A DNA stretch of 64,000 nt from a virus (IMGVR_UViG_3300034418_005508:1551-65550); one strand, 5' to 3'. Numbered from the stretch's first letter, positions 3,001-63,594 are shown. Program-made: numbers and translations. Notes: a model not told the origin generated them from the letters alone.

Positions 3001-3803
3001 TTCTTGTCGTCCTGGTTGTAGAATGCATCGATCGACTCCTTGAGCTCAGAGATATCTCTAAGTGTCTGCATCTTCTCTTTGTCAGACATCTGATCCACCC
3101 TGTCAACATCCTTCTCGATGCGTGCTATCAATGAGTTACCTGCCTTGGCTACGGTAGCTACATAGTCTACAAAGTCAAAGTAGTCACTTACCTTCTGGTG
3201 CTTATCTCTTACCTTTCTGAGGTTACGTTGCAACACCTTCAAGTCAGCTATCTGCTTTCTAGTTCTGTCGCTCTCTGGTATTCTACTTATCCTCCCAATC
3301 TCATACTCCAAGTTGGTGATGATACGGTCTGTGAGTATGTCAGCATTTTCTCTGACGTCCCCGTTCTCCTCTTCTAGTTCAGACTGTTCATCTCCCTGCT
3401 CGTTATCCTTATTCGGATTGTTGAGAGCATTGCTGTTAGCATCATTTGAGTCTAGCAAGTTGAAGTCCCCGGGCAGTATGGTCATGCGTGTAAGCACGCT
3501 GTTGTCCACCCTGACTCTGTTCAGCTTCCCCAAGCTGTCTGTCAAGAAGAGTGGTTTGCCTCCTCGAAACACATCAACCGTCATTCTGTTGATGGCATTG
3601 ATAACTTTCATTGAGTCCTCTGCAGCATCTGATAGTGTAACATAGCTACCTATGCCTTCATCGAACTCTACCATCCCAGACTCAGCGAACTTCTCCATTA
3701 ACTGAAGAGGGGTTCTCGATCCAGGATCTGTCTCCTCAATGTAGTTGAGCATACTGTCCAGCTCGGGAGCACTTACCCCATTGAAATCATACTTACACGC
3801 CAT
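1..3803 (-). CDS. Large virion cargo/ejected protein following the virion RNAP (partial, runs off the left edge; >1260 aa)
   Basis: Absent from the ORF track because there is no stop in the window. ATG at 3803 overlaps the RNAP stop (TAATG). The start (MACKYDFNGVSAPELDSM...) and the left edge (...FYQRRSGRFQKGDKKWVKEFLDIFPGAAG) translate in the same frame; the interior was only spot-checked. Position matches the last large cargo gene of crAss-like phages. Confidence 0.85.
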   Translation of the reverse strand, partial: MACKYDFNGVSAPELDSMLNYIEETDPGSRTPLQLMEKFAESGMVEFDEGIGSYVTLSDAAEDSMKVINAINRMTVDVFRGGKPLFLTDSLGKLNRVRVDNSVLTRMTILPGDFNLLDSNDANSNALNNPNKDNEQGDEQSELEEENGDVRENADILTDRIITNLEYEIGRISRIPESDRTRKQIADLKVLQRNLRKVRDKHQKVSDYFDFVDYVATVAKAGNSLIARIEKDVDRVDQMSDKEKMQTLRDISELKESIDAFYNQDDKKSVLALLETKLLREGVVGTEAERTFLLAKLQEAVSSMRAVNNEYLDTAIPVLARTLHSFAPIEINEQLNSQIKNLKDNMEKGIFLTSGLSRLDKRFLKARTKGRRAVTELNIKQLEEKRIGVEEIENELRETHNKVSWFSLWTDPAVYSSDTITKLVAAAVRDKLVQSNDDTIAVKYKLRDAFKNFVNWKGVGQDRPDKLYEDIYETVMRPIYNPETKTSELKEVVQFVQQEDMNKFYKNRSRAYESFREKYNYPTDPTLLDEYFEGAEGRAYLEATAQWYYENTEKIDGAELVEADLVRRRVALFQQINDPNTSPVERQALSIEINDITSTLRNSVRRYQGKKVYIGNLARPKMSEYENKKYTNMPIEAKQYMELLLEVYHDTQRMIGRNPLLKDQFSDVSFVFPSVRKSSYDSYREKGFKDSAKNMLGDTFTAQETDTEFGELRRANGEPLKMIPQYYVNYIPAALVSKDITNSIIKFADMAHRYKAKSELTGVVNLTRAAMISRSQLEMATTGDYLKDAVAKKAGIDMVDRQGARNSNAFKQFESFVDNVFYGQSMIRKDDVIATITGKLDSNKLSQFAGTVTAVTALAGNWIQAGNQIILDSTMNASEAWAGQYYSRQDLLWARGKTYRSGNGLGALAEGVTRPFATDNKLVALMEWADALQEFGGQFGTEAGSALKKKMNLDSAFVLQHAAEFQTTAERLLALGRSYKGKFQDKNGNVILNKNGKPADMWDLFVKGENGQYNLDKRVAKLNGRKWSKSEFIGRLHGLNKKTNQLKGNVDKPLVNRHAMGRMLMFFRNYFVPGYRKRFGFGSGGIHTDIESGQVIEGYYQTFFNVMSNAWHNKSDLRSVYAGMTQTEKQNMARFMHEQGFVWMLGLLGTLMGSMLDDDDMDSYVADFLAYQGLRLHSEMRAYTNPIEFARILSSPSAVSTPIKNWWQLFGATKNLGLYYLGADNEADVFYQRRSGRFQKGDKKWVKEFLDIFPGAAGTFKSLDPAE

Positions 3804-23900: not shown

Positions 23901-26900
23901 GCTACCAGGGTCAAGCATGAATGTAAACTGAGAGTTTCTAGGTGCGCAGTAAGAATCTACAAACTCAAATCCTGCAGGTTTTATTAAAGACCAATCTTTG
24001 CCTGCGCTGTTGTACCATATGTTTTGTTGTCCATTCCATCTGTGGTCACCACCCTTGATGATCTCTCGGTGTCTATATATCTGCTCTGGGTGATAGTGTG
24101 CACAAGCTACGTATGCCCCACCTCTGTATGAACGGATGCGGTATCTACGAGCACGCAGCTCGGACACGTCGCTGTAATCCTCTATGTCATCTACGTCTTT
24201 TTCTTTACCGCGCAGACGTCTGAATGCTCTCTTGAACAAACCACCGGGCTTGTCTTCTTGGTCAGCAGGTGGATTGTCACTACCGTAGGGATTGCTCACA
24301 TCTTCATCTGCATCGATGAACGTATCAGTCACGTCATAGATCTCACCATCTACGTTGTAGTCGACAGTGTTACCCAACGCTTGTGATATCCATCCCAGTG
24401 ATGGGAAGGTTGTGAGCTTTTCTTTGTTCTCCTCATCTTCTTTACGAGCCCCAAATACACCAGGCCCGCCCTGGAACTGTCTAAATGCAATAGCCGCCTG
24501 GCATTGTATGTGTGTGACTGTGTTAAGAGTTGGTCTCTTACGCAGCATGTTAAAATCGTGGAATGTAAAGACTGGGTTCGCGTAGTAACGGAACATCCTG
24601 TCTACAATCGTAGGGCCTGCGTAAGGAAACTGCTCAGCCCTGTTGGGGTTGGGTACTTGTTCCTGTCCCCTTCCTGCAGCATCTGGATTGTTGTCTGTGT
24701 GGTAAGCTGCTTTCCACTTTGACGCTACAGCCATAGCGGTCTCCATGTCGCTTCTCAATCCACCAAATGCGTAGAATGCATTGAAGTATGGCCCCTTACG
24801 CGCCAGCAGTCTGTTCTGGTTTGGGGAAGATGCATACCTAGGCATAGCTGGTATGGCCAAACTTTGCCCACTAATAAGTCTGTCAGAGTTTGTACGCTTA
24901 GCATAATAGATCTTGTACCCTTGTATTTCCTTAAGCATGTGCTTAGGAATCTTCAGGTTCTCCAATTGTATACCAAGTATTCTTACAGTCTCACTGGTTA
25001 TAAGCTTTTTCTTTACATACGAATCACTGGCAATCTTTTTATCTCTGTGATTGGATATCCATGCTGCTCCCAGGTAATCCAAATTGTTCTGATAGGTTTG
25101 TGGTATCCCTGTAGTTGGGTCTTCAAATGCAGCCACAAAACCTCTTTGAGATAGGTTACCTGCATTTTCAAAGAATATCCCACCGTAGTTTCGATCCCAA
25201 GCAAGTGGGCCATACTGAATGCCTGTATTGTTACCCGTCAGTATGTCCTCTCCTGCACCTGAGTATTTCACGTATGAAAAGTCAGGGTTGTAGTTAGATG
25301 GCATTCTATGATGTCTCACTTTTCTGCCATACAAGCTGTAGTACTTATGGTAGTAGCTATCAAACGAGTATCCGTCTGTATTGCCTGGGCCTATGATGTT
25401 TGTTTGTTCTCCTGTATCTCTGTCTACATCTGCGTGCACCCAATCAAAGTTCTCTGGGTATCTTTCACTCTGGTTCTCCCAGAACCCCATGTTCATTTTC
25501 AAAGCAGTATAAGCACCATCGTCTCCATGGTTAATTGGGTCACCTCCTGCGAAAGAGGTATTGTAGCTTGTATCAATGACTTGATATATACGTGCTACTT
25601 TAGACTGTTCTTTCAATTCAGGGGCGTGGAATCCGTGACTCTTAAGGTGAAGGTTCTCACCTTTGTGAGTGAACCTGTCACTCTCCATGAGGTAGTCTCC
25701 CAAACAATCTGTTTCATTGGGGTCTAGTTCGCCCAGCAAAAACTTGTAGTAAGTGTCCGTAGGTACTGGATCTCCATTGCAGAGACCAGAGTTGCTTATG
25801 ATATTTGCTTGCTGCTGCGTTGTAACCAACGGAACCTCACGTCTTCCTGGTATGTGGTACGCAAAGGTCTCTGTACCGTCTCTAAGTACGAATGATACGT
25901 AGAATGCATAGACGTCACCACGTCTAAAGCTCTTACCTCTGTACGAGAATCTGTTGTCTTTATATCCTCTACGTGTAGCCTGAGCGAGATTATAGCTAAC
26001 TCCGAATTTCCCATCACCGAGTCTTAGCTGTATCTGACCGCTGTCCGGGTATCTCAGGTAGTCTGCAATTGAACTAACGTAGTCTGGGTACATAGAGTCA
26101 ACAGCATCTATACCTAGGGTAGCAGGGTTTGCGGGAGCACCGTTTTGCTCTGACTGGTAGTAGGTTTGACCTATACCATCAAATCCTGCAGGGTGTTCTT
26201 TAACCGCATAGTACGGCATGACCATGGTACCATATCCCTTGTTTAGAGTTATGATGTCATACACCCTTCTATCAAAGCCTTCCACAGCTTTGACTACAGG
26301 CTTGATTTTAATGTTAGATGCGTATCTCTGGAACCCTATGTCTTTACGTGAGATCAGGTTACCTAAGTACAGTCTGTCGTTAAGTTGAGTAAGTGTCTTC
26401 GCAGTCAAGTACTTTACTTGATCTGCTACAATGTCAAGAAGACTTAATGTGCTTGCATCCTCTCTGCCGCTATATACGATGGTAAATATGCTGCTACTCA
26501 GCCCGAAGTTAGAACTGCTTCGTTGTTCAGATGCTTGTCCTGAAGTTTCTACAAACGGTGCTGGAGGGGGCGATGTTCTTCTGTCTGCGACGAAATCTTC
26601 AGTATCAATACTTGGATCATTGAACGCTCCGGTAGGAGGAGTGGTGTTACCTACGATGTCAAGTGTATTGATACTATCATATGCATCGTCATCATTTGTG
26701 CTCTGGATCTGTATTCTGTCCAGCTTGTACACGTTCTCTGCATTCCCTATGCGCTGTATTACAGCAGGCTGCAGGTACTTGTACTGCACCGTCTTTGGTA
26801 TGTATACCTCCCAGTGTACGGACTTCGTTGTTGTTGTCCCACCCTGTGCCCCAATAACAATGTCTGCTGGTACTGTTGTATCGGGTTCTGGGATGATGTA

Positions 26901-27593
26901 AACTGGGTTAGATACCACGAAGTAGTTCGTCTCCACAAAGTCTTCGTCAGCATATGCAAGTGCAAGGTGATATGTGCCTGATCTTACTGCACCACCTTCA
27001 AACACATATGCATTCTTGATACGAGAGTGTGTGCCCACTTCAGGGAACAAGCTTAGCTTATCTACAGTGTAGTTGTTCTCCCCATACAAGACCTCGAACG
27101 CACTAGCGCCAGGGGCTATGGCAAACCACTGCAGTTGTCTAGTTACATTAAATGTCCTTGGTGGGTTAAAGTCGGATACGTAAGACGCTTCTGTGATCGT
27201 CTCATCTATGACGTAGTAGTTGTCCGTGAAGTAAACAATGACATCGTTCTTAGCATCTCTTCTGTACTCACCTATAATAGGATGGGATCTCTTGAAGTTG
27301 AGTTTATCGCTGCGGTACAGTACGGTTGTCTCTTTCTTGACTGGGTCAACAAGTATGATCTCGCAGCTTGTATTTTGATTTACCCCAATGCCGAAGATGA
27401 TCAGCCTTTCTTCGTCAATTGGTATTGCACCAACGACGTCTACGTTCAACGATACGGCAAGCTCATTGCCCCATTCGTTGCTCATAGTGCCTGTCTCTAC
27501 GCTTACTGTAGCGTTGAGCGCATCTCTGTACGTCCCATCAGGCTGTTCAGCCTTGGACGTATCTTTAGCCATACCTCCAATAAACTTCTTCAT
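20958..27593 (-). CDS. Tail stabilisation / muzzle protein (P22 gp10-like, crAss type)
   Basis: 2211 aa. N-terminus GGMAKDTS..QPDGTYRDALNAT, internal TLTQLNDRLYLGNL, SFRRGDVYAFYV, GYKIYYAKR, C-terminal WTLSY..WISRHSYVP. Synteny after the ring protein. Confidence 0.85.
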   Translation of the reverse strand: MKKFIGGMAKDTSKAEQPDGTYRDALNATVSVETGTMSNEWGNELAVSLNVDVVGAIPIDEERLIIFGIGVNQNTSCEIILVDPVKKETTVLYRSDKLNFKRSHPIIGEYRRDAKNDVIVYFTDNYYVIDETITEASYVSDFNPPRTFNVTRQLQWFAIAPGASAFEVLYGENNYTVDKLSLFPEVGTHSRIKNAYVFEGGAVRSGTYHLALAYADEDFVETNYFVVSNPVYIIPEPDTTVPADIVIGAQGGTTTTKSVHWEVYIPKTVQYKYLQPAVIQRIGNAENVYKLDRIQIQSTNDDDAYDSINTLDIVGNTTPPTGAFNDPSIDTEDFVADRRTSPPPAPFVETSGQASEQRSSSNFGLSSSIFTIVYSGREDASTLSLLDIVADQVKYLTAKTLTQLNDRLYLGNLISRKDIGFQRYASNIKIKPVVKAVEGFDRRVYDIITLNKGYGTMVMPYYAVKEHPAGFDGIGQTYYQSEQNGAPANPATLGIDAVDSMYPDYVSSIADYLRYPDSGQIQLRLGDGKFGVSYNLAQATRRGYKDNRFSYRGKSFRRGDVYAFYVSFVLRDGTETFAYHIPGRREVPLVTTQQQANIISNSGLCNGDPVPTDTYYKFLLGELDPNETDCLGDYLMESDRFTHKGENLHLKSHGFHAPELKEQSKVARIYQVIDTSYNTSFAGGDPINHGDDGAYTALKMNMGFWENQSERYPENFDWVHADVDRDTGEQTNIIGPGNTDGYSFDSYYHKYYSLYGRKVRHHRMPSNYNPDFSYVKYSGAGEDILTGNNTGIQYGPLAWDRNYGGIFFENAGNLSQRGFVAAFEDPTTGIPQTYQNNLDYLGAAWISNHRDKKIASDSYVKKKLITSETVRILGIQLENLKIPKHMLKEIQGYKIYYAKRTNSDRLISGQSLAIPAMPRYASSPNQNRLLARKGPYFNAFYAFGGLRSDMETAMAVASKWKAAYHTDNNPDAAGRGQEQVPNPNRAEQFPYAGPTIVDRMFRYYANPVFTFHDFNMLRKRPTLNTVTHIQCQAAIAFRQFQGGPGVFGARKEDEENKEKLTTFPSLGWISQALGNTVDYNVDGEIYDVTDTFIDADEDVSNPYGSDNPPADQEDKPGGLFKRAFRRLRGKEKDVDDIEDYSDVSELRARRYRIRSYRGGAYVACAHYHPEQIYRHREIIKGGDHRWNGQQNIWYNSAGKDWSLIKPAGFEFVDSYCAPRNSQFTFMLDPGSKTYLPGQRNLKTAESSSFKGAQYIFNRGGESSIVMALVSGLPHLKGLVPFKGNAIPGFPWYLGDGSDDGGGEYGPFNIAAWGDDDKFLFPDAWFQASKDPKPVRPIPDHAVYLYGSSVTTENSNFKGLNYTLAGADYEWGYPMAWLINVCSLKTDVYTPFDKQELVWTGYYYSIDEEFKEWEDKYNLAEGACYAALKTGTTAAINDLDFTSAGGSTVLSPVKKYFSGAESTEVYGGDTYISKYAFRTTSHSYGHSWFRASSALGDAGPSGASGLNSTDALKVIGNPGTNGVNLGYIQNTRQKDVPDFLSLNDFLTNWGTAGGMSVWQGNFITTITDTTYPEFPNSTEVGKIESFISETLLNANNWQQGNSNPVTSLFTFMVESDDNIGLRHQKDSEKGQATKFFDFNTAAEVLFSPPTQDFTKQDQLLYEDHFSFVQDKRVAVPFPKVRAGTEENDQFRNRIIRSKSATGALSDRYREFLANDYADIPKKRGDITDMFTMNDTLYVHTEKALFQTKGNEQLELGSVKAFIGSGDIFAIPPTELQESEIGYGGTMSGLSSYTTEVGHFYVSRRSRKVHMLTQGITEVMGNMNHWFRENIPFEIERYGINVDAHEFPYYPDAPTNTNVPMGFIVGYDPKFKRIILTKREPLPTQTLIDGLQDGTIEIQNNMFFAVQQNNSKTGVKLSKSEREYTHRRNLEAFRENTAIDKLGPSDTAREIASDINHPANKGNVKSGPIGLSNPTYFTQSGWTLSYLPDLQIWISRHSYVPDIFITGEQTYYTMYKGSVYMHNDEDNPGNFYNTLYNFELEFIDNANPAMAKLYSNVYYWADAKSRSEDYTTEFKRQTFPIFDRFYVYNTTQISGEFTEINYLNNCRLVDGIWYINSFRDLAAVVVNTNSYINTGEPNVVGKLTTKVESTREDTPMFTYEGVPNPEYINAEKQWYEQKKFIGHYLGVRLISNNESKNLIYLYSAGTKFRNSYR

Positions 27594-32383: not shown

Positions 32384-32772
32384 TACGCTTTAGTCCAGTA
32401 GCCGTATTCGTAGCTAATTTCGTCAGTTGTGCTGCTTGTTACTCTGATACCTTTGGCTCCTTTTACTGGGAGGAATATTGCTTCTCCCTCAGCCAAGTCT
32501 GCAAAGTCTTGAGTGTTCTCTGCTGTGCTTAGGACGAGGACAGGTGTGCCTCCGTCTTTGCTTACGTACTTGATATATACGTATGTGGTATCAGTTACAC
32601 CTGTACCTAGAATGGTATTTGGTCCTGTAGAACTAGTTACAGTGCCTGAGGCCAAGTTTACTACAGGGGCTTCTATGGTCAGAGAGTCTGTTACAGATAT
32701 ACCAAACCCTGCGGTTGTTGTTGTGGACGACCCCGTAGATGTTAGTGACAGCCTTGATTTAATGTTTCCCAT
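32383..32772 (-). CDS. Hypothetical beta-rich structural protein
   Basis: 129 aa, T/S-rich. Resembles 36960-37349 (YVYIK...LAEGEAIFLP versus LVFLK...LGPGQFTLFP). Confidence 0.7.
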   Translation of the reverse strand: MGNIKSRLSLTSTGSSTTTTAGFGISVTDSLTIEAPVVNLASGTVTSSTGPNTILGTGVTDTTYVYIKYVSKDGGTPVLVLSTAENTQDFADLAEGEAIFLPVKGAKGIRVTSSTTDEISYEYGYWTKA

Positions 32773-32784
32773 TGTTGTTCGTTA

Positions 32785-33090
32785 TTAGCACCGGCAGTTC
32801 CACTTGCGCAGTGACTTATTGATTCTTGAATTAGGATCTCTCTTACCCTTAGATCCTGTTCTCTTTGCTTTCATTCCACACATACGTGAGCAGAATGACT
32901 TTCTCCTGGACTTGCGTTTACCTGAGGGGTTAGACTCAGTTACTGGAGCAGCAAGTTTGCTCCCCGGGTTAGCAGCTCTGTAGGATGCCCTACCTTTTGC
33001 ATTGAGACCTCCGCTTGGGTTTTTACCAGCTTTCCTAGTCCAAGCAGCTCCTCTCTGATACTGTCTTTTATTTTTACTGAAGTATGTCAT
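32785..33090 (-). CDS. Small basic phage protein, DUF6321-like
   Basis: 101 aa. AWTRKAGKNPSGGLNAKGRASY...RRKSFCSRMCGMK...SRINKSLRKWNC. Confidence 0.75.
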   Translation of the reverse strand: MTYFSKNKRQYQRGAAWTRKAGKNPSGGLNAKGRASYRAANPGSKLAAPVTESNPSGKRKSRRKSFCSRMCGMKAKRTGSKGKRDPNSRINKSLRKWNCRC

Positions 33091-35120: not shown

Positions 35121-35400
35121 CGTACTTCTTTTTAACGTGCACTAGCTCAGCACACTTTTCGTATTCTTCGTTGTCTTCAAAGTATTGTATGATGTCGTCT
35201 ACAATCATGCGAAATGTCTCAGGCGCAGAGGGGTCAAAGGGCAGGAAGATCATGTCGTCTGCTTTGTCCAAAAGCTCACGCACAGTCATCCCACCCGTAG
35301 CTATCGAATATGCATTTCGATAAGCCTCGTCAAGTATCTGTATCTCCTCTTCTAATGAGGAAATATTCTCTTCTTCGTCTCTGTCTTCAAACTCTAACAT
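35110..35400 (-). CDS. Acidic hypothetical protein with C-terminal UVR-like EEYEKCAEL motif (96 aa)
   Basis: Start reassigned to ATG 35400 to avoid a 160-nt overlap with the phosphoesterase gene. Confidence 0.65.
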   Translation of the reverse strand: MLEFEDRDEEENISSLEEEIQILDEAYRNAYSIATGGMTVRELLDKADDMIFLPFDPSAPETFRMIVDDIIQYFEDNEEYEKCAELVHVKKKYDDS

Positions 35401-39407: not shown

Positions 39408-42400
39408 TTAGAATATTATTTCGTTCCCGTCTTCGTCTTGGAATCCTATGGATGAATTACCACCAAAGTCCTGGGTTCTGTTGTTAGGACCAATGCCCTG
39501 TCCTTCGTTACTTTCATAGATGCCTGAGTTTGCAAGTGGATCTATCTCACAGTTGTCGCAGTATCTCTTGATGAAATCCACGAATGTCTGGAAGTAGTTC
39601 TCTGGGTTGCCCCCGCTTTGGAACTTGACGTTGATGCACGCTTCCCACACTCTTTGCTTTTTGTCTGCTGTTACTCCTGGGAGTGTCATTCCAGGAGACC
39701 AATCTGACTTTGCAGTGTAGTAGCTTGACGTACTCACTCCGTTCACGACCCTCGTGTACTTGACTGTAGTTCCTTTTCTGTAGTTGCTACTTGCAGCGAA
39801 TCTTTGATATCTGCCTGCAGCCCACCTTGCTTTACAGTCGATCTCTTTCATTCTATTGCTGAAGCCTCTAACCTTACCGTTTCTCTTGACCCCGGCTTCA
39901 TAGTTATCGCAGTCAAACAAACAATCAAGGTTGTTCTTTGAGCCTTCGATGAACAAGTATGCAATAAGAGCAAGCTTGGTTGTATCTACGTCATCCAGGT
40001 GTATGCCTGCTTTGAGTCGGAACATGTACTTAAGTGCATCTCCGCTGGCGCAGGACATCAGTACCTGAGTCAACCAGTCTTTGTCGTACTCTTCATTTAG
40101 AGCTGCTTCCTCGAATATCGGGTTGCATACAATTGTAGTAGTTGTGAACGTTTCGATGGGCTCACACTCATTGTTTGCTACACTCTGCTCGCATGGTTGT
40201 TGTCCAGGGTTGCACAACTCTGGATTTAGCAAACACTCTGGATTACAATCGTTGCCTACACAAGGACAGTCACCGGTCTCTAGGCAGTTCACGATAGGTG
40301 GATTTACACAGTCCGGGTTGTTCGGGTCTGGGCAGGGATCTTCGACGCAGCCCTCTCCTGTTGGGTCATCTTCACAATCTGTACATCCTGCACCATTACA
40401 AGCGTAAGTGCACTGGCCGTTGTCTGCATTTTCCCCTCTACACTCAGGGTCGTAGTTAGTCGCACTTTGATCCGCGCAGCACTTACCTCCTCCCTCGCAA
40501 TCTCTGAGGCTTGCACTGAATCCTCTACTTCCTGCTGTTAGTGTTTCATCTGCACGTTTGTCGCATAGAAGACACTCTGGGTGTGTTGGGTACAAGTCGC
40601 AGAAGTCACATGTAGTGCAGTACACACAAGTGCCATCGTCAATTGTTGCGTCTGGGTCGTAGTTCTCGGCCCCAGGGTCAGTGCAACCTGCTACGTTGTC
40701 TGGACAGTCATCCGGGTTTGTAAACTGGTTACAAGGTTGAGGACAGTCATCTGTGTTCGTTATCATGTCAATGACATGATAAGTTTGCTCATCTGCGAAC
40801 TGACCAAACTCTGCAATACAGTCTTCAAGTCCCCCGAAGTTTTCACCAACAGCTGTTGCGTCGATGTGGGGTACTACAAACAGAAGGTATTGACCCCCAG
40901 TTAAGTCGTTGGTTGGTCCAAAGAGCGCACCTAACGGAACATTTATTTCATATTCAGAACCCGCTAAACTTTCCCCTATACCAAATGGGTCACCGTTTGT
41001 TATAGGTGTGGTAGTCATATCCCCAACTCCTATGAAGGCTGCAGCAGTATTACTCATAGTCAGGAATTCTCCTTCTCCTAGGCCTTGTATAGCGGTTACG
41101 TTGTTGTCGTAGAAGACCATGGCCTCACCAACAACGTTGATGTTTCCTCCGCTTACGTAGGCTACGAACAGTACAAAGTTTCCTTCGTTAGCTCCAAGTG
41201 CTCCTGTTGGGCTTGATACCGAGTAGTCTTGGACTGTGACAGTCATACTGCCATCGTAGTTCGGGTCGTAGTAATAGTACGGCTCTCCTCCATCACTGGG
41301 CTCTGCTACGTAAACGCAATCTGAGCTTGCTCTGGTTGACTCTACGTCCGTTATGAATATAGAGTTAAGTGCATCATTGAATATTTCTTCGCATGGTATG
41401 TACTCGCAGGAACCATCATCGGAGTTTGCATCCGGGTTGAAGTTCACCGCTGTCTCGTCCATACATCCCTCTACCAAGTCTACGCAGTCTTCTGAAGTTG
41501 ACACGTATGAGATAAGTTCTGCGGGGCAGATTACTGATGTTGGGTTACCGTCATCGTCTACTATGTAATCTACTACATCCAGCAGACTTACAAACTGGCC
41601 GCTGTTATCTATAAGTCCAGTTGCTTGAAGTGTAACTCCTATCACAGCCTCACCCACAGATCCGTTGTTATCCTGATCGAAGTCAAAAGGACCTGCATTT
41701 ATAACAGCATTTGCTCCCTGGAATGTGCTGATCACTGACTGTGTTATAGCTATCTCTGGATTAGGTACGTAGAGACCGTTTTCTACTATGTGAGAAACTA
41801 CTGTCTGTTCAAGAATACCATCTACAGTTATCTCAACTATGTAATAGAATGCAAATCCTGTCTGCGGTTCAATGAGTTGATATGCATCTCCTAGAGTTCC
41901 ACCTTGTCCTGGGTCTGACTGTACAAAGAATCCATCGATAAGAATGCTGAAATTAGCTTCTCCGTACACATTTCCATTCTCGTCTGGTCCGACGCAGTCT
42001 GTAGCTATTTCTGTAAGACACCAAGAGTAGAAGTTGCCGCAAGTTACACTTTCGTCCTCTCCTTGGAACTCACATATTCTTGAGTTGAGCAATCCTGTAG
42101 ATATACCATCCTCAGATGTTACACAGAAGTTAGGTGTAAATACACCGGAGCCATCTGCGAGGAATGTATTAAATTGGTCTGTTGGGGTGTTTACTCCAGG
42201 GTAGAAACTTACTCCATCCCATGGAGTTCCTTGCCACGGAGCATTGTCTGCTCCTGCATAGTTTCCTGCGGAAGTTGATGTTGGATCAGTACATTCACAG
42301 TATTCCACGAAGAAGTGGTAGGCCATGTAGTAGAACTGCTTCTGACCGCAAGTCTGTAGTGGTTGGAATCTAAGTACAGCTACATATTCTCTTCCTGCTT

Positions 42401-45400
42401 CTAGCCCTATGTCTGTTACTGTACTTGCATCATCGGGATCAAAGTTTCTAAAGTAGAATGAACTAGCATCACCAGTGTACTGGTTTGCTAGTGTTGCTAC
42501 CTCATCGAAACTTTCCAACCCAACTCCAGAGAAGTTCCCAAATATATCATAGTACACATTTGTTTGTGCAAATGTTGATCCGTCTCCATTGCTTTCTACC
42601 GCCCAACCATTACCGAACGTGTTAGCGGGCACAGTTCTGTTCTGCCAGTCGTCGTACGTATATATCTGACATACCCACCTAGAAGCAAGCTCAGAAGTAA
42701 TCATATCGTTTAGTGCAACCTGATACCCACCACTATAGCTATCGTTGCCTAATTGCTGTTGAGAGCCTTGGTCAGATGCAGGTACAAGACGGTCAAGCAA
42801 AGCATCATGCCTCATAGCGAAGTATGTAAAGGCTGTATTAGGTCCTCCTCCTGATCCGCTTGTTAACGCGTTCTCTGAAGTGTTTACTGCATTAAACAAG
42901 TTACCATCCTGCCAGTCATAAATATCTGGGCTTGACGTTGGTACGTCAGCCAGTCCCCCTCCAACATTTCCTATATATGTAGCGGGGGCTGTTCCGTATA
43001 GTCCGTTTGCGCTAACACTGTCTACGTTTCCAGGAGTTGTATTTATAAGAAGTGGAAGTGCTTGCACAAAGTGTAAGGCATTTGCATCCGAGTCTAAGGC
43101 AGTTTCGCAGAAGTAACAACTGCCGTCATCCACGTTGGCGTTAGGATTGAAGTTCACTGCGTTTTCATCAGTGCACCCTTTAATAGAATTATCTGGATCT
43201 CCGTCGCCGTCGTTATCTTCAAATCCTGTGTCAATAGTGTGATCTCCTATTACAACAAACTTCCTATTTCTGTATGGGGGTTTGTCTTTGGATACGTCGC
43301 TGCACTCTGTAGTAATACCTAACGACAGTATAGAACATTCTACCTCTGTGTTTTCCCAGCTCTGTGTCCATCCCAAGTCTACATGAGCTCTTTTAGGATC
43401 GGTTCCTGCTATTGCTAGGCTTCCTGCTGAGAACAACAGCATATGTCTGTGAGGTTCATCATCACTTGAGGCAGCACTGTTATATCCGGCTCCACCTATC
43501 GTGGCAAATACTCTTGCTTCATCTGCTGAGTCATGAACAAAGAACTGCAGGTCTTGATCTATGTATGGATCTCTGCCGGGAAAATACTTGTATGTAAAAG
43601 TATTAGTATCAGCTAAGACATCCGTTGGATCAGCCAAACTGAGGCCCAAGAACTCTGTTTGGAAGATGTCACCGTACCCATTAAATCCTAGGCCAAACTC
43701 AGAGAGAAGGACTGTCTGAGTGGAGTTGGTTGTTGTTCTGTACTCTACAGAGGTTGCAGCGGCGAGCGTTCCGTCAGCGAGGTAGTTTAAGGCGTAGCCG
43801 TTATCTACATTGGCGTTTCCTGTTACTGAGAAGTATGAGTTTACGTACAGCAGTGATGGAAAGGCATCTGCACCACCTGTCCCCGTTTCTGAGTACTGAT
43901 CAGTTACAACGTTTCTAGGATATATGACTACTGTTTCAAACCTTTTGCTGTCAGGGCTAGTGCCCTTTCCGACTTCGCCTACAGGTAGTGACTCTACAAC
44001 ATTTCTACATCCGCACCGGTCATAGTCTAGTTCCTCGTTACATAGAGACAAGTTTCTGAATCTAACTAAGCTTGTTTCGTTTTCGTCCCCTAAAACAGCC
44101 CACGTTGCTTCAGAATTTTTATCTGTGCAGAAAGTTGAGTTTACACCATTAATGCCGTTGGCAGCTATAGCGTATGTGGGAGGTAGTGTTGAACTGCCCC
44201 CTCCGGAAGTAACGTTAACTCGGTACTTAACTCGGTGTAGGGTGTCTCCAGCTCCCTGCTCTGTTATTGGAGAAAACCCATAAACGTCAGTAAAAGTTGG
44301 TATGTCTGAAGTAGCCCAAGGCGCATAATCGTCATTACTAATCGCTATAGCTTGAGGAGACTCTGCGTATACAAATGCTGTATAAGTGAAGAGCACAGAA
44401 CTTGACAAGTTCTGACTGTTAACAGCGGCTGATGCTACTGTGGGCCACCCAGAAGTTAACCCTGTAGATGCTGGCGTAAAGCCGGCTTCTCCTCCTCCTA
44501 TGTTAGCTCCTATGGTTCTTGAGGCGTTGTAAAAGGTTTGGTGTATTCTGGTTGCATGGTACACACCAGAGAACAATTTATCATATGCTGGAACCAGTTC
44601 TTGGTTCTCCGAGGTAGAAATATAGTTTTGGAAACTGTGCGCTGACGTGTTGTCTGGGTCAGCCCCCATGTAAAATGCATTTGATATAAAGTCCTGCCAC
44701 CCTATATTTCCGATAAGTACTGCGTTTAAAGCCTCAAGACGCATATACTGACTGCCTCCTAGAGCTGTCTGGTTAGAGGCATCAGGATTGCCTGACGCTT
44801 CATTGTATGATGATTGAAAAGCCCAACTAGCATACCAAGCCCAAATGTTTACGTCATTTGAGTTGATTGCACTACCTACACCATTTGTAATGTTGTAGTT
44901 AGTAGTTGAGTTTATGGTGAAGTTAGTGTTCTCCCACTTATAGAAAGTAACATAGTGCATAAACTCAGACTGAGCATGCGGGTAGTAAGGACTTCTGTAG
45001 ATACCTCTGTCTGGGTGTACTCTCAGATTCTCACACCTAGCGTTGGATCTGGTTGCTGAGTCATCATACCCGTAGGTATCTCCTAGTTCATATCCTTGGT
45101 TTGGTATGCCTAGACCTGTAGGTAGGAAATCACCACCCACGGTCTGTGGTAGGTAAGACCCACCTATAGAAGACGCACCGTATTTTGTATCTCCGTAACT
45201 AGGTCCTACTACGTACTTCCAGGCATAGAGTCCATAATTTATATATCCATGGGTTTCCCCTATGTTTAGTTGTGGTCCGTGGAATTCAAGCAAGCTGAAT
45301 TGATCGCCCTTACGCTGGCTTCTGTAAGTACTAGTACGTCTGTCTATTCTCTGCTGAGATTGAGGATCAACCATGTCCATCCTGTCCCTTGTCAGGTCCA

Positions 45401-46277
45401 GTTTTCTAAAATCTGGTTTTGAGTTCCTGCCGTATACGGCGTTTCTAAGAAAGTGTATTTGTCCGGGGGCAGTTATTGCTTCAGGGGGAAGATCAAACGC
45501 TGACCGCTGGTGCTTAGGCTGAGCTGGGGCTAGTCTACTAGCTGAACCGGGAGTACCGTTGAGCCACTTTGTTTTTGTCCTTACCGAGTTCCACTGTATA
45601 CCATCGTTAGCAGTTCCTAGATCTTGAACCTTCACTGTTGCCCCTATGTTACTGCTGTCAGCCCCAGTTAAGAATCTGGCTACGTCAACTGTGGGGTTTT
45701 GGTGTGCTTTATCGCCAGTTGATGCTGGCACTCCAGCAAGAACGAATGGTACTTGCCTCTTATTTACAGCTACCCCTAAGTCACTTCTGCCCCCTTGTAG
45801 CAGCAAACACCCTTCTAGTATAACTATATCACCGGGCTGGACTTGATCAAAAAGCTTTTCAAGCAGATATACTTTTACTGCCAGGTGCCCATCTGTAAGA
45901 TATCTGAACTCTGTCCGCTCGATGTACTCTGCTAGTGTGTTTCCTGTTATAGTAACTAGAGTTAGGTCATCTGACTTTATTTTAATAGACGTGGGCTGCA
46001 CACCTACCAGCTCTCTTATAGGCTTATTAAGCAGACCGTTCTCAAAGTTTCCCTGAAGGCCGTCACCTCCGTTAGCGCCCCCGTACAGCAAAAGATCTGC
46101 AGAAGTCCACCCCTCGTAAGCTAACTCTTCGCTTGAGAGATACCGTATTTCTGAGGGAGAATGCGCGGAATTGTGTATGAATATATCAAATGCGCTAGCG
46201 GCATGAGCCTCTACGAACGTAAATACGGGTAGATCTCTGCCCCCCTCTCTTGTAGAAAATCCAAGTACTCTAGCCAT
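39408..46277 (-). CDS. Giant Cys-rich tail-associated protein with GCTDxxAxNY/FxPxAxxDDGSC repeats
   Basis: 2289 aa. Three full and two degenerate GCTD repeats, a Cys/Pro-rich stalk, and a C-terminal helical Cys-containing domain with an aromatic insert. Occupies the tail-hub position. Confidence 0.75.
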   Translation of the reverse strand: MARVLGFSTREGGRDLPVFTFVEAHAASAFDIFIHNSAHSPSEIRYLSSEELAYEGWTSADLLLYGGANGGDGLQGNFENGLLNKPIRELVGVQPTSIKIKSDDLTLVTITGNTLAEYIERTEFRYLTDGHLAVKVYLLEKLFDQVQPGDIVILEGCLLLQGGRSDLGVAVNKRQVPFVLAGVPASTGDKAHQNPTVDVARFLTGADSSNIGATVKVQDLGTANDGIQWNSVRTKTKWLNGTPGSASRLAPAQPKHQRSAFDLPPEAITAPGQIHFLRNAVYGRNSKPDFRKLDLTRDRMDMVDPQSQQRIDRRTSTYRSQRKGDQFSLLEFHGPQLNIGETHGYINYGLYAWKYVVGPSYGDTKYGASSIGGSYLPQTVGGDFLPTGLGIPNQGYELGDTYGYDDSATRSNARCENLRVHPDRGIYRSPYYPHAQSEFMHYVTFYKWENTNFTINSTTNYNITNGVGSAINSNDVNIWAWYASWAFQSSYNEASGNPDASNQTALGGSQYMRLEALNAVLIGNIGWQDFISNAFYMGADPDNTSAHSFQNYISTSENQELVPAYDKLFSGVYHATRIHQTFYNASRTIGANIGGGEAGFTPASTGLTSGWPTVASAAVNSQNLSSSVLFTYTAFVYAESPQAIAISNDDYAPWATSDIPTFTDVYGFSPITEQGAGDTLHRVKYRVNVTSGGGSSTLPPTYAIAANGINGVNSTFCTDKNSEATWAVLGDENETSLVRFRNLSLCNEELDYDRCGCRNVVESLPVGEVGKGTSPDSKRFETVVIYPRNVVTDQYSETGTGGADAFPSLLYVNSYFSVTGNANVDNGYALNYLADGTLAAATSVEYRTTTNSTQTVLLSEFGLGFNGYGDIFQTEFLGLSLADPTDVLADTNTFTYKYFPGRDPYIDQDLQFFVHDSADEARVFATIGGAGYNSAASSDDEPHRHMLLFSAGSLAIAGTDPKRAHVDLGWTQSWENTEVECSILSLGITTECSDVSKDKPPYRNRKFVVIGDHTIDTGFEDNDGDGDPDNSIKGCTDENAVNFNPNANVDDGSCYFCETALDSDANALHFVQALPLLINTTPGNVDSVSANGLYGTAPATYIGNVGGGLADVPTSSPDIYDWQDGNLFNAVNTSENALTSGSGGGPNTAFTYFAMRHDALLDRLVPASDQGSQQQLGNDSYSGGYQVALNDMITSELASRWVCQIYTYDDWQNRTVPANTFGNGWAVESNGDGSTFAQTNVYYDIFGNFSGVGLESFDEVATLANQYTGDASSFYFRNFDPDDASTVTDIGLEAGREYVAVLRFQPLQTCGQKQFYYMAYHFFVEYCECTDPTSTSAGNYAGADNAPWQGTPWDGVSFYPGVNTPTDQFNTFLADGSGVFTPNFCVTSEDGISTGLLNSRICEFQGEDESVTCGNFYSWCLTEIATDCVGPDENGNVYGEANFSILIDGFFVQSDPGQGGTLGDAYQLIEPQTGFAFYYIVEITVDGILEQTVVSHIVENGLYVPNPEIAITQSVISTFQGANAVINAGPFDFDQDNNGSVGEAVIGVTLQATGLIDNSGQFVSLLDVVDYIVDDDGNPTSVICPAELISYVSTSEDCVDLVEGCMDETAVNFNPDANSDDGSCEYIPCEEIFNDALNSIFITDVESTRASSDCVYVAEPSDGGEPYYYYDPNYDGSMTVTVQDYSVSSPTGALGANEGNFVLFVAYVSGGNINVVGEAMVFYDNNVTAIQGLGEGEFLTMSNTAAAFIGVGDMTTTPITNGDPFGIGESLAGSEYEINVPLGALFGPTNDLTGGQYLLFVVPHIDATAVGENFGGLEDCIAEFGQFADEQTYHVIDMITNTDDCPQPCNQFTNPDDCPDNVAGCTDPGAENYDPDATIDDGTCVYCTTCDFCDLYPTHPECLLCDKRADETLTAGSRGFSASLRDCEGGGKCCADQSATNYDPECRGENADNGQCTYACNGAGCTDCEDDPTGEGCVEDPCPDPNNPDCVNPPIVNCLETGDCPCVGNDCNPECLLNPELCNPGQQPCEQSVANNECEPIETFTTTTIVCNPIFEEAALNEEYDKDWLTQVLMSCASGDALKYMFRLKAGIHLDDVDTTKLALIAYLFIEGSKNNLDCLFDCDNYEAGVKRNGKVRGFSNRMKEIDCKARWAAGRYQRFAASSNYRKGTTVKYTRVVNGVSTSSYYTAKSDWSPGMTLPGVTADKKQRVWEACINVKFQSGGNPENYFQTFVDFIKRYCDNCEIDPLANSGIYESNEGQGIGPNNRTQDFGGNSSIGFQDEDGNEIIF

Positions 46278-61555: not shown

Positions 61556-61833
61556 TAGTTAGGGATAATACCGCAGATCATAAATTCGTTCACCATTACG
61601 TACTCCTTACCCTTTAGGTCTATAATTAGACCTTCAGATGTAGGATGTACCATGACAGTGTCGCCCTCTTTGACCATCTCACACTTAGGTCCTGCGGCAA
61701 CTACTTCAAGTATGTTCGTACGTAGTGAGTTTTCTGCACCCCCGTGCAGTGTAATACCGGATGCGGTCTTATTCTTACGTTGAACTGGGAGAACTACCCA
61801 GTCACGTGTGGGTTGGAAGTTGATCTTTGCCAT
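61555..61833 (-). CDS. groES: Co-chaperonin GroES (Cpn10)
   Basis: FQPTRDWVVL..KTASGI.L..VVAAGP...VKEGDTV..EY.MV.E..I.GI. Confidence 0.92.
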   Translation of the reverse strand: MAKINFQPTRDWVVLPVQRKNKTASGITLHGGAENSLRTNILEVVAAGPKCEMVKEGDTVMVHPTSEGLIIDLKGKEYVMVNEFMICGIIPN

Positions 61834-61849
61834 TTGTGTTGGTTTTAGG

Positions 61850-61857
61850 CAAAGATA
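61850..61857 (-). promoter_or_regulatory. Bacteroidota -7 element TATCTTTG upstream of groES
   Basis: TAnnTTTG in the intergenic gap, with TTG 21 nt upstream (61879-61881). Confidence 0.75.
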
Positions 61858-61869
61858 TAAAAACTTGTC

Positions 61870-62268
61870 TTATATAAACAAGAGTAGTACAGTTCTTTTT
61901 CCCTCATGTGGGGTTACCATGTGCTCTACGTCAGAACTGTGGATGTAGGCTGAACGGTAAATCTTATCTTCTTTCCTGTCTCTGTAGGTAAGTGTGCCCC
62001 CAGTAAACTGATCTGGTTTGGATAGCAGTACACTTGCCCCATATCTGCACCAAAGCATGTGCTTTTTGCTGCCTGTGTCTATATGCCACCCGTGTCCTTG
62101 AGGCTTAGACTCTACTCTCCAATAAGAGTTTTCTGTAGGGGTAGCATCTATGTGAGCTAGCACTTTTTTGAGCGGTGCAGAATCCCAGGTACGATGCTTA
62201 CCTGTAGGTTGTGCTTTTAACCAGTTTACGTCATCTTCGTCTATGACGTTGTCAACTCGTTTTCTCAT
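61870..62268 (-). CDS. 2OG-Fe(II) oxygenase superfamily protein (132 aa)
   Basis: WHID (HxD), FTGG.L, HMVTP..GKR. Start reassigned to the ATGA overlap at 62268. Confidence 0.85.
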   Translation of the reverse strand: MRKRVDNVIDEDDVNWLKAQPTGKHRTWDSAPLKKVLAHIDATPTENSYWRVESKPQGHGWHIDTGSKKHMLWCRYGASVLLSKPDQFTGGTLTYRDRKEDKIYRSAYIHSSDVEHMVTPHEGKRTVLLLFI

Positions 62269-62681
62269 AGTATATCTGCAAACTTCTCGCTGACTTTGAA
62301 GCTGGGGCATGTTTTGTCTGAGAACTCATTGTGCCCGTGCAGCGTCAACTCTCTATCCCATACCATGCGTAGTGAGAACACCAGTTCCCTGAATGCTTCT
62401 TCTTGGCATTCGAACATTGTGTCCTTGGGGTTCATCTCAGCATCCATCCCACCGATGTAGCAGATCCCTATGGAGTCGTCATTGTGGCCTTTGGTGTGTG
62501 CACCTTTTGTATCTAGAGGTCTCCCACTTTCTATCTCCCCGTTTAGCTTGATGACGTAGTGGTACCCGATATCCGCCCAGCCGTTTCCGTTTACGTGCCA
62601 GTCTCTTATTGTTGCTGCGTCTATGTCTCTCCCTTCTGGAGTGGCGGAGCAGTGCAGTATAATTCGGTTAATCTCTCTCAT
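62265..62681 (-). CDS. Endolysin, N-acetylmuramoyl-L-alanine amidase (T7 lysozyme-like, 138 aa)
   Basis: IILHCSAT, GWADIGYHYVI, GAH..GHN..SIGICYIGG, GHNE...KTCPSF. Start taken at ATG 62681. Confidence 0.93.
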   Translation of the reverse strand: MREINRIILHCSATPEGRDIDAATIRDWHVNGNGWADIGYHYVIKLNGEIESGRPLDTKGAHTKGHNDDSIGICYIGGMDAEMNPKDTMFECQEEAFRELVFSLRMVWDRELTLHGHNEFSDKTCPSFKVSEKFADIL

Positions 62682-62920
62682 GACTAGATACAATTTACCC
62701 CCTTGGGTTTGCGTGTTTAGCAGTTGGATTTCCACTCGCCGTCTTTAGCCTACGTGGGGGCATTTCTGTCAGCCTATAGCCTTGTTCCCACCCGAGTTTT
62801 ATACCAACGCACTTTTTGAAACTACCGGGGACAACGTTCACTGCCTATGGTGACAGCTAATGTAACCCGATGTCTAGGCCCCTTTTTGGTTACCGAGGGC
62901 CGGTCGCAAAGCGGTTTCGT
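62682..62920 (-). ncRNA. Candidate structured ncRNA or 5' leader upstream of the endolysin
   Basis: Largest non-coding gap in the window, GC-richer than the other spacers, preceded by TACCTTTG, with several nested helices identified by eye. No family recognised. Confidence 0.55.
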
Positions 62921-62922
62921 TA

Positions 62923-62930
62923 CAAAGGTA
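62923..62930 (-). promoter_or_regulatory. Bacteroidota -7 element TACCTTTG
   Basis: TAnnTTTG just after the stop of 62932-63240, pointing into the structured spacer. Confidence 0.65.
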
Positions 62931-62931
62931 A

Positions 62932-63240
62932 TTAATTGCAGTCTTTCTGCCGCAACTCATCCACAAGTATTTGCAGTTGTTCTACATCACGCTCTAAGTG
63001 ATTGAGTCTGAGGTTCTGCTCAGCATCATCAGGTAAGCTGCCCATCTCCCCTCTTGGCCACTTGATTCTGAACTCTGAGTTGAGTTCGATCTCTTGATTG
63101 TGACGCATAGTTTCTATCTCAAGCTGAGACAGTGCAGACATGATGGTGAAGTAAATCCATACAGCCCCACCAACACCTACAACGATTTGGATCAACCACT
63201 TAATGTTAATCCCGAAGTTTGTGGTGTCGTCAAGTTTCAC
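62932..63240 (-). CDS. Membrane protein with one TM helix and coiled coil (lysis-associated?)
   Basis: 102 aa. WLIQIVVGVGGAVWIYFTIM hydrophobic helix; near the amidase gene. Confidence 0.7.
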   Translation of the reverse strand: MKLDDTTNFGINIKWLIQIVVGVGGAVWIYFTIMSALSQLEIETMRHNQEIELNSEFRIKWPRGEMGSLPDDAEQNLRLNHLERDVEQLQILVDELRQKDCN

Positions 63241-63446
63241 TCCATCTTGTTTTTAGCGAGGAGTATCTTGATCTCTTGGATGTCTTTAAGGAGCTGCTTA
63301 ACGTCGTCCTTAAACTCTTTGTTGTCTGCCTCCAGGGCGTAGACCCGAGATGATAGTTTGTTGTAGTCAGCTTGGAACTTTATCCAACCCCCGATTAACG
63401 ATCCTGCTACAACTAAAAACTCAAAGTGAGATAGGTATTCTTCCAT
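63237..63446 (-). CDS. Small TM plus coiled-coil protein, holin/XhlA-like (69 aa)
   Basis: Start reassigned to ATG 63446 (MEEYLSHFEFLVVAGSLIGGW...), because the upstream extension overlaps another gene. Confidence 0.65.
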   Translation of the reverse strand: MEEYLSHFEFLVVAGSLIGGWIKFQADYNKLSSRVYALEADNKEFKDDVKQLLKDIQEIKILLAKNKME

Positions 63447-63459
63447 AGTGATAGGTGTG

Positions 63460-63594
63460 TCACCTACCCTGGCCGCGATATGCTTTCTTATAGTTCTTAG
63501 ACTTCTTATGGACTGAAGTCTTGGTCTTAGCATGTACCCCAGGACGGGAGACAGTTTTACGAATGTAAATGTCGAATGCTGTTTGTTTTGCCAT
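63460..63594 (-). CDS. Small basic protein ending YRGQGR (44 aa), not in the ORF track
   Basis: MAKQTAFDIYIRKTVSRPGVHAKTKTSVHKKSKNYKKAYRGQGR. The KxYRGQG ending is a motif I recall from small aquatic-phage proteins; it has its own promoter. Confidence 0.85.
   Translation of the reverse strand: MAKQTAFDIYIRKTVSRPGVHAKTKTSVHKKSKNYKKAYRGQGR

Follow-up and report, generated by a model that had tools for sequence, protein, structure and literature searches.

Comparative sequence evidence for a strongly conserved, intricately folded RNA ahead of the endolysin gene of a marine crAss-like phage

The late leader of lambdoid phages comprises the promoter PR', a short leader RNA ('6S'/StxS) and the terminator tR', which is read through with Q; in phage HK022, put is a cis-acting antiterminator RNA of two stem-loops and ~70 nucleotides (nt). 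GOLLD and ROOL are large, ornate bacterial and phage non-coding RNAs (ncRNAs), often found in phage or prophage DNA and catalogued as Rfam families, and are several-fold longer than the RNA that is the subject of this report, a predicted folded RNA of ~235 nt. It is specified by the minus strand at 62682-62930 of a 64,000-nt stretch of viral DNA (IMGVR_UViG_3300034418_005508:1551-65550; hereafter the window), the source record of which is a 65,550-nt linear viral contig estimated to be 78% complete. A further point of comparison is the crAss-like Cellulophaga phage phi14:2, in which, according to a preprint, long ncRNAs at the g004-g005 and g005-g006 junctions are more abundant than most messenger RNAs (mRNAs), and the middle and late genes are transcribed by the host RNA polymerase (10.1101/2020.03.07.982082).

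Comparison of the copies of this stretch in related phages shows that it specifies a strongly conserved, intricately folded RNA of ~235 nt, with a predicted architecture of eight helices and a pseudoknot. Constraint of this degree is usually a sign of catalysis or of attachment to a conserved machine. Here we set out the evidence for the fold, describe the genes and signals around it, and weigh what the RNA may do.

Conservation and fold of the spacer RNA

The stretch lies between an open reading frame (ORF) of 102 amino acids (aa; 62932..63240, minus) and the ATG at 62681 of an Amidase_2 gene, and it is gene-free; a first-pass annotation of the window had placed a multi-helix RNA at 62682-62930. 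It is also the best-conserved DNA of its neighbourhood, the RNA being under tighter constraint than the adjoining genes: in 28 distinct relatives, the median nucleotide identity to the window is 90.5% for the RNA (84.2-95.0), as against 71.1% for the amidase gene, 71.9% for a GroES-like gene and 79.7% for a 165-aa gene. A query with the amidase protein recovered 80 IMG/VR loci, 39 of which carry the spacer at 82-95% identity (blastn); in these the spacer is directly 5' of the amidase, with the exception of locus L048, and the amidase proteins are 61-83% identical.

Further copies came from pattern scans, which returned 63, 53 and 62 stretches for three patterns in the viral collection and 68 stretches in the metagenome collection; the total reached 80 distinct copies. 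Six loci form a divergent clade (L048, which is the same copy as L180 and L143, L161, L189, L223, L225 and L226), which scores 124-143 bits with the covariance model, compared with 245-293 bits for the remaining copies; the core loops and junctions are nevertheless invariant even across clades with proteins only 55-70% identical. The window's own record holds the RNA once, as does each of five related records. Ten pattern matches (L084, L086, L092, L100, L106, L120, L122, L126, L130 and L138) proved to be unrelated sequence and were dropped as chance. The sole match among 185,579 species genomes (L212, an Anditalea metagenome-assembled genome), together with L227, reached 10-13 bits at E 0.18 or worse and was supported by neither covariance model. 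An apparent second copy in the window, at 32758-32884 (17.8 bits, E 0.012), lies inside coding sequence and is likewise treated as chance.

The stretch is non-coding. A 48-aa ORF within it (62695..62841) keeps its start codon in 38 of 63 distinct copies and has lost it in 25, the net length change 3' of that start is not a multiple of three in 44 of the 63, and the variable columns per codon position number 26, 26 and 28 (of 51 each), with no third-position bias; across the 63 copies, then, neither a conserved open frame, nor indels in threes, nor third-position variability was found. The amidase does not begin at GTG 62735, a possibility that the first-pass annotation had raised, its ATGAGAG start being conserved and the stretch upstream of it carrying frame-breaking indels. 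No tRNA was found in the spacer or the window. Co-directional spacers elsewhere in the window are short, roughly as had been stated; the only other apparent long gap (35121-35386, minus) has one frame open for 91 codons with an internal ATG, and more probably holds a small gene missing from the gene list than another ncRNA.

Two alignments support the fold. In the first (A1), 41 copies aligned with MAFFT and assessed for five helices picked by eye and by a pair scan, 96.9% of cells are paired, 15 of 27 pairs have changed on both sides (6.3 in shuffled controls, 0/500), and the covariation score is 0.290, compared with 0.143 shuffled and at most 0.06 for slid controls. RNAalifold extended one helix, P3, to 10 base pairs (bp) and proposed three helices in the invariant core. 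The second alignment (A2) holds 67 copies, 63 of them distinct, aligned with covariance model R1; for its 43 pairs in eight helices, 98.2% of cells are paired, both-side changes occur in 21 pairs (9.9 shuffled, 0/500), and the score is 0.234 (0.112 shuffled; slid controls ≤0.039). Because A2 was fitted to the model it favours the structure, a bias of which A1 is free. The conserved G-U pairs in A2 (UG 41, UG 59, GU 49 and GU 46) would be A-C on the opposite strand, so the fold belongs to the gene-sense strand, i.e. to RNA. Its parts are as follows.

62905..62913, minus: P1, hairpin CGC-UUU-GCG; 2/3 pairs changed on both sides (GC 31, AU 19, UA 4, CG 2), 94.2% paired
62877..62901, minus: P2, hairpin GGCCCU/GGGGCC (62901-62896 with 62882-62877), its 13-nt loop containing GGUAACC; 3/6 pairs changed on both sides, 99.5% paired
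62819..62875, minus: P3, 10-bp helix from RNAalifold, enclosing P4; AGACAUCGGG (62875-62866) with CCCGGU-A-GUUU (62829-62819)
62841..62856, minus: P4, hairpin CUGUC/GGCAG with conserved loop ACCAUA; 4/5 pairs changed on both sides (GC 37, AU 21), 94.8% paired
62835-62833 with 62717-62715, minus: PK1, pseudoknot GUU with AAC, crossing P3; 100% paired in 63 distinct copies
62810-62804 with 62727-62720, minus: P5, GCGUUGG with CCAAC(U)GC, closing the conserved core; 6/7 pairs changed on both sides, 98.0% paired
62735..62796, minus: core domain P6-P8, with near-invariant loop UAUAGGCUGAnAGAAAU and junction GUAGGCUAAAGACGG
62796-62793 with 62738-62735, minus: P6, CUCG/CGAG; 4/4 pairs changed on both sides, all in the divergent clade
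62791-62787 with 62758-62754, minus: P7, GUGGG/CCCAC; 0/5 pairs changed, invariant, so that covariation is uninformative
62781-62779 with 62761-62759, minus: P8, GGC/GCC; 1/3 pairs changed on both sides (GGC/GCC to GAC/GUC)
62688..62704, minus: 3' tail, AAGGGGG and then A/U-rich UUGUAU, the conserved end of the RNA, 7 nt before the amidase ATG

P3 is paired in 98.1% of cells, with one of its ten pairs changed on both sides and three on one side, pairing always being kept (as in UCGGG/CCCGG to UUGGG/CCCAA); in the divergent clade its outer four pairs are broken, and P4 is longer there with ACAUAG kept. The three PK1 pairs (GC 63; UA 60 and AU 3; UA 34 and CG 29) include two that covary, giving the variants GUU/AAC, GUC/GAC and GAU/AUC, while slid controls reach at most 71%. 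The GGGG of the tail is invariant in 41 copies, including those with no ORF behind the RNA, and conservation fades ~10 nt further on. A CC/GG pairing of the tail with bases before P2 is 100% paired with changes on one side only, and a pairing with the CCCCC of the core never varies, such that covariation says nothing about it either way.

The first-pass annotation had called for a covariation test on homologous spacers; covarying helices are indeed found, but in a fold different from the one it had drawn. Its hairpin GGCCC...GGGCC is real and is P2. Its long-range set of helices (CUGUCA..AUAG/CUAU..UGACAG, UUGU/ACAA and CCCG-AGUUU/AAACU-CGGG) is not supported, scoring 0.036 for covariation against 0.031 shuffled, with one pair changed on both sides against 1.7 shuffled, and with 20, 26 and 36 unpaired cells at three pairs where one side varies. 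The inner helix of its proposed 3' domain (GGC-AGU-GGA/UCC-ACU-GCU) scores 0.088 against 0.091 shuffled and breaks where one side varies; the outer CCCCC/GGGGG of that domain is invariant, so covariation cannot judge it. A helix CUAGA/UCUAG, suggested to close the whole structure, has its 3' partner in only some rows of a 28-row alignment inspected by eye. Of two suggested pseudoknots, GUAACC/GGUUAC is plausible, the complementarity of the P2 loop to GGUUAC (62867-62862, just behind the 5' strand of P3) averaging 5.56 nt against 4.04 nt shuffled in a register that shifts between copies, but UGCGU/ACGCA lacks a conserved 3' partner.

The whole window gave 0 matches to Rfam 15 (4227 models) at gathering thresholds; the region 62400-63300, searched at E up to 10, gave one chance match to a long ncRNA model on the opposite strand (5.8 bits, cutoff 80 bits); and five other copies had no match on the RNA. 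The cmscan search advised at the outset thus matched no family, leaving the RNA's novelty intact. In 50,697 GenBank phage records, blastn with the region and with one divergent copy gave no match. R1 gave none in the phi14:2 genome, searched in full at E up to 10, and neither did a model of the core domain (R2) in the genomes of cr109_1, ProJPt-Bp1, Fpv2, cr1_1 and one Bohxovirus (best E 1.26). A literature search, which did not extend to supplements, found no description of this RNA; in PMC9226505, Crassvirales appear only in connection with reverse transcriptases. The covarying helices, the gene-sense G-U pairs, the lack of an Rfam match and the lack of a coding signal bear out the earlier reading of the stretch as an unclassified phage ncRNA. 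It is as a family, without any catalogued relative, that the RNA is new.

Promoter, downstream signals and neighbouring genes

The RNA is flanked by the following features.

62923..62930, minus: TACCTTTG box (TAnnTTTG), predicted promoter; T1, A2, T5, T6 and G8 invariant in 41 aligned copies
62265..62681, minus: amidase (N-acetylmuramoyl-L-alanine amidase, endolysin), 138 aa; PF01510 E 5.8e-13, phrog_822 E 9.4e-51
61864..61882, minus: AU-rich hairpin CUUGUUU/AGACAAG followed by UUUUU, terminator-like by sequence and fold; weak, z -1.6
61850..61857, minus: TATCTTTG box, predicted separate promoter of the GroES-like gene (ATG 61833); same box and spacing in L102, L110, L121, L139 and L108

The claim of the first-pass annotation that the RNA has its own promoter agrees with the alignment, in which the box at 62930-62923, with the invariant positions of TAnnTTTG, stands at the head of the conserved block. 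The distance from box to RNA is fixed, and the DNA 5' of the box differs between contexts. TAnnTTTG is the -7 element of Bacteroidota primary-sigma promoters; TACCTTTG would then be the -7 element of a host promoter of Bacteroidota type, with a predicted RNA start a few bases downstream. The same motif occurs at most 39 nt 5' of other minus-strand ORF starts (63606-63599, 61857-61850, 52759-52752, 21004-20997 and 15478-15471), but only the box at 62930-62923 precedes a 240-nt untranslated stretch. Since there is no TAnnTTTG box between the RNA and the amidase, the two are probably on the same transcript.

The hairpin at 61864..61882 is likely the end of an RNA-amidase-p132 unit, with transcription predicted to terminate there. 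In copies with no ORF behind the RNA, an AU-rich hairpin with a U-run comes ~25 nt after the RNA and is followed by the TATATTTG promoter of the GroES-like gene, whereas in the window the amidase and a 132-aa ORF come between the RNA and the counterparts (hairpin 61882-61864, promoter 61857-61850). All inspected copies have, in front of the GroES-like gene, a conserved cassette (61850-61882, minus, in the window; 2320-2362 in L102) in which an AU-rich hairpin and its U-run are followed by a TAnnTTTG box; this cassette looks like a terminator-promoter junction parting the RNA-lysin unit from the packaging genes.

The neighbours of the RNA vary on both sides. Of the 80 distinct copies, 61 have the amidase as 3' neighbour, 7 lead straight to the GroES-like gene, 4 have a DUF5675 gene and 5 something else, the remaining 3 being too short to judge. 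The 5' neighbour is a 44-aa basic ORF in 26, the 102-aa ORF in 6, a 98-aa ORF in one, a divergent signal-peptide gene in 6, DUF5675 on the opposite strand in one and another sequence in 28, with 12 too short; there are at least five kinds overall. The RNA thus travels with its promoter box between differing neighbours and persists without an ORF behind it.

Upstream in the window, the 102-aa ORF (62932-63240, minus; phrog_20984) and the 98-aa ORF (63237-63533, minus; weak XhlA match, E 0.027) each encode, by their translations, one hydrophobic segment and after it a tail of coiled-coil character. Their products are candidates for lysis proteins of holin or spanin type, which would place the RNA inside a lysis cassette in this phage. 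The very basic 44-aa ORF (63460-63594, minus; ..KTKTSVHKKSKNYKKAYRGQGR), which directly precedes the RNA in 26 of the 68 copies that could be judged, is conserved in relatives, including one in which the RNA is missing (L022); it has no Pfam or PHROG match, and its product could be an RNA-binding partner. A 158-aa DUF5675 protein (1530-2003 in L087; 1180-1656, minus, in L102) replaces the amidase behind the RNA in the 4 copies mentioned; elsewhere its gene is inverted just 5' of the RNA, next to a signal-peptide protein, and it carries an invariant IHCGN..TAGCLLLG stretch. The idea that it is a second lysin was dropped: Pfam offers only the DUF, PHROGs an unnamed family and the PDB sequences nothing, and an AlphaFold model from five sequences had a pLDDT of 37 and was unusable.

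Behind the RNA the same module recurs in all copies examined, consisting of genes for the GroES-like protein (PF00166, phrog_3188), an 82-aa protein, an HTH-like 115-aa protein, a DUF6171 protein, a 73-aa protein and the 165-aa protein, followed by terminase, portal and major head protein. The best tblastn matches of the terminase are to cr109_1 and its relatives (Crassvirales, Suoliviridae) at ~43% identity. A complete relative of 89,217 nt has one arm of ~20 kb on the minus strand (80.6 to 11.0 kb, across the ends of the record) and one of ~68 kb on the plus strand (12.2 to 80.5 kb). The RNA, at 12479-12723, heads the ~68-kb arm, ~1.4 kb in and behind one 102-aa ORF. In L048, a divergent copy, no other element comes between the strand switch and the RNA. 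By its terminase and its two opposed arms, the phage can be assigned to the crAss-like phages (Crassvirales). The window also contains three giant minus-strand ORFs, at 3803-15466 (3887 aa), 39408-46277 (2289 aa) and 20958-27593 (2211 aa), of which PHROGs match only that of 2211 aa (phrog_15100, virion structural protein). Typically, crAss-like phages have a virion RNA polymerase, which one of these three ORFs may encode. In the divergent clade, contig L226 carries a tRNA gene at 11978-12051 (RF00005, 71.6 bits).

Possible roles of the RNA

We tentatively favour, at a probability of roughly 0.4, the reading that the stretch is a free-standing RNA gene whose product, a folded particle binding a conserved partner, tunes the late or lysis phase. 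It is preferred to the view that the RNA is no more than an endolysin leader: the amidase follows in 61 of 77 judged copies, but 7 have just a weak hairpin, a U-run and the next promoter; the promoter box that moves with the RNA, the varied neighbours on both sides, the single copy per genome, the full score without an ORF behind and the invariant core all argue in the same direction. The host RNA polymerase would start from the Bacteroidota-type promoter and make a pseudoknotted RNA of ~235 nt at the head of the late/lysis arm. Its 3' end would be set by the AU-rich hairpin and U-run that precede the GroES-like promoter or, where a lysin gene shares the transcript, possibly by a cut in the A/U-rich stretch past the GGGGG tail. 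The invariant loops and junctions may then hold on to a conserved partner, which could be a protein of the phage or host machinery, for instance the ribosome or RNA polymerase. Such a contact, rather than base-pairing or the switching of one downstream ORF, would tune the late or lysis phase. No antisense target stands out from chance within the window, where four 10-mer complements to the RNA were found, compared with ~14 expected, and no 11-mer.

Several observations weigh against this reading. The amidase ATG is 13-16 nt past the conserved tail in 61 of 77 judged copies with no box between, which is the usual signature of a 5' leader. Three relatives (L021-L023, records 7-46% complete) carry the amidase and the whole downstream module with no RNA in the available DNA; the RNA may be dispensable, or may be located elsewhere in these incomplete records. 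The single sequence folds at -67.4 kcal/mol, whereas shuffles average -72.0 (z +0.91), and 163 of 200 shuffles fold at least as well; on this test, taken alone, the energy is no better than chance, which the first-pass annotation would have counted against a structured RNA, and it was the comparison with relatives, not the single sequence, that revealed the real fold. The AU-rich, terminator-like hairpins are weak (z -0.3 to -1.6). Six RNA runs were found, each with 6-8% of sampled words, and four were examined as contigs; pieces of these four metatranscriptome contig sets cover 61629-61836, 62211-62472 and 62923-63319 but not the RNA, although contigs cannot show absence. The transcript, its ends and any partner are predictions.

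A more ambitious version of the free-standing gene is unlikely, namely that the RNA is a new phage ribonucleoprotein or RNA-only device whose pseudoknotted core would dock on the Bacteroidota RNA polymerase or on a ribosome blind to Shine-Dalgarno sequences, reprogramming host expression for the late/lysis phase. The invariant AAGGGGGU tail resembles a Shine-Dalgarno sequence; two reports describe such sequences as normally ignored by the ribosomes of Bacteroidia (PMC7797042, PMC9976891). Such a device, if real, would be a mechanism without a described counterpart.

A possible but doubtful alternative is that the RNA acts in cis in the manner of HK022 put, the nascent fold making the host RNA polymerase resistant to termination so that it would pass the hairpin into a late arm of more than 60 kb. 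The invariant promoter box at a fixed distance and the position of the RNA at the head of a ~68-kb co-directional arm would fit, as would the terminator-like hairpin that follows in both the ORF-less and the lysin-bearing layouts, the lack of need for an ORF, and a core whose invariance would suit binding of a conserved host enzyme. However, boxes at most 39 nt before several ORFs of the late arm (the GroES-like gene at 61857-61850, and 52759-52752, 21004-20997 and 15478-15471) mean that there is no obvious need for a single licensing site. The hairpins that the polymerase would have to pass are weak, and put RNAs are two simple stem-loops of ~70 nt as opposed to a 235-nt pseudoknotted fold.

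Doubtful to the same degree is a cis-acting leader of the endolysin mRNA, in which the fold, alone or with a ligand or protein, would set lysin translation or stability and hence the time of lysis. This was one of two readings offered in the first-pass annotation, and part of it stands, in that the amidase does follow in 61 of 77 judged copies at the short distance given above, with no promoter box between, and that a DUF5675 gene follows in 4. The small membrane/coiled-coil ORFs just upstream (98 aa, XhlA E 0.027; 102 aa, phrog_20984) also fit, and in 5 of the 7 ORF-less copies a DUF5675 gene or a signal-peptide neighbour lies just upstream on the opposite strand. The reading is weakened by those 7 copies, in which the RNA is intact and scores high although the next promoter comes before any ORF, by the 4 with DUF5675 in place of the amidase, and by the three relatives L021-L023, which have the same amidase without the RNA, the stop of a 43-aa basic ORF there overlapping the amidase ATG with no promoter between (2873-3004 and 3001-3414 in L022). 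Moreover, no conserved alternative pairing masks the start region, CUAGA/UCUAG occurring only in some rows.

It is improbable that the RNA is a primer or origin transcript akin to ColE1 RNA II, which with its G-run would hybridise to the template near the divergence of the arms and start replication. The RNA has its own promoter, one copy per genome and no need of an ORF, its invariant G-run is followed by A/T-rich sequence, and the cumulative GC skew of the complete relative has its minimum (11.0 kb) ~1.5 kb away from it; that minimum, however, coincides with the gene strand switch and is not independent evidence for an origin, and the distance from the RNA to the divergence point varies among relatives, from none to three small ORFs. 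About as improbable is a self-cleaving or otherwise catalytic RNA, acting on the late or lysin transcript to process its 5' end: the fold is compact and pseudoknotted with invariant unpaired nucleotides in its junctions and loops, but no known ribozyme family in Rfam 15 was matched even at E up to 10, and no cleavage site can be inferred from the sequence. That there is no RNA at all, the stretch being a small coding gene (the 48-aa ORF or an amidase frame extended to GTG 62735, both of which exist in the window) or a double-stranded DNA site, is scarcely credible given the start lost in 25 of 63 copies, the frame broken in 44 of 63, the lack of third-position bias, and compensatory changes with strand-specific G-U pairs that favour a single-stranded fold.

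In guts and waters, crAss-like phages rank with the most abundant viruses that infect Bacteroidota, and the timing of their late and lysis phases is barely known. The RNA offers in this setting a defined 235-nt object with a testable structure, for which the ORF-less copies and the RNA-less relatives are natural comparators.

Comparison with known systems

Several classes of known RNA do not accommodate the locus. For a riboswitch, the genes behind it are too mixed (amidase 61, DUF5675 4, none 7, other 5), and nothing resembling an expression platform was seen, there being no conserved pairing of the start region and no intrinsic terminator directly behind the core. A phi29-type pRNA is not indicated, Rfam Phage_pRNA giving no match, and with respect to bacterial 6S RNA, there is again no Rfam match and the fold is branched and pseudoknotted rather than a rod with a central bubble.

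Phage phi14:2 offers a parallel, since it too is crAss-like and marine, has a Flavobacteriia host and makes long intergenic RNAs; those RNAs differ in lying in the early region and in being present at the earliest time point sampled, and with R1 finding nothing there homology is not shown. Although shorter than GOLLD and ROOL, and unlike them without an Rfam match, the RNA shares with these a complex fold supported by covariation. It resembles HK022 put in standing directly behind a predicted promoter at the head of a long operon and in that it could act without an ORF behind it, but differs in its 235 nt, eight helices and pseudoknotted core, and antitermination would be ascribed to it by analogy.

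With the lambdoid late leader there is no sequence or Rfam relation, and the fold is far more elaborate than in that leader, with eight helices and a pseudoknot. The lambdoid leader ends at a terminator directly behind it; here, 7 of the 77 copies that could be judged have a weak, AU-rich hairpin and a U-run ~25 nt behind the RNA, and in 61 of the 77 the lysin (amidase) ORF lies between RNA and hairpin, and several late genes have their own TAnnTTTG box. Despite these differences, the locus is like the PR' leader in its layout, that is, a predicted constitutive promoter of host type at the head of the late/lysis genes, a non-coding leader of ~200 nt and, behind some copies, a terminator-like hairpin.

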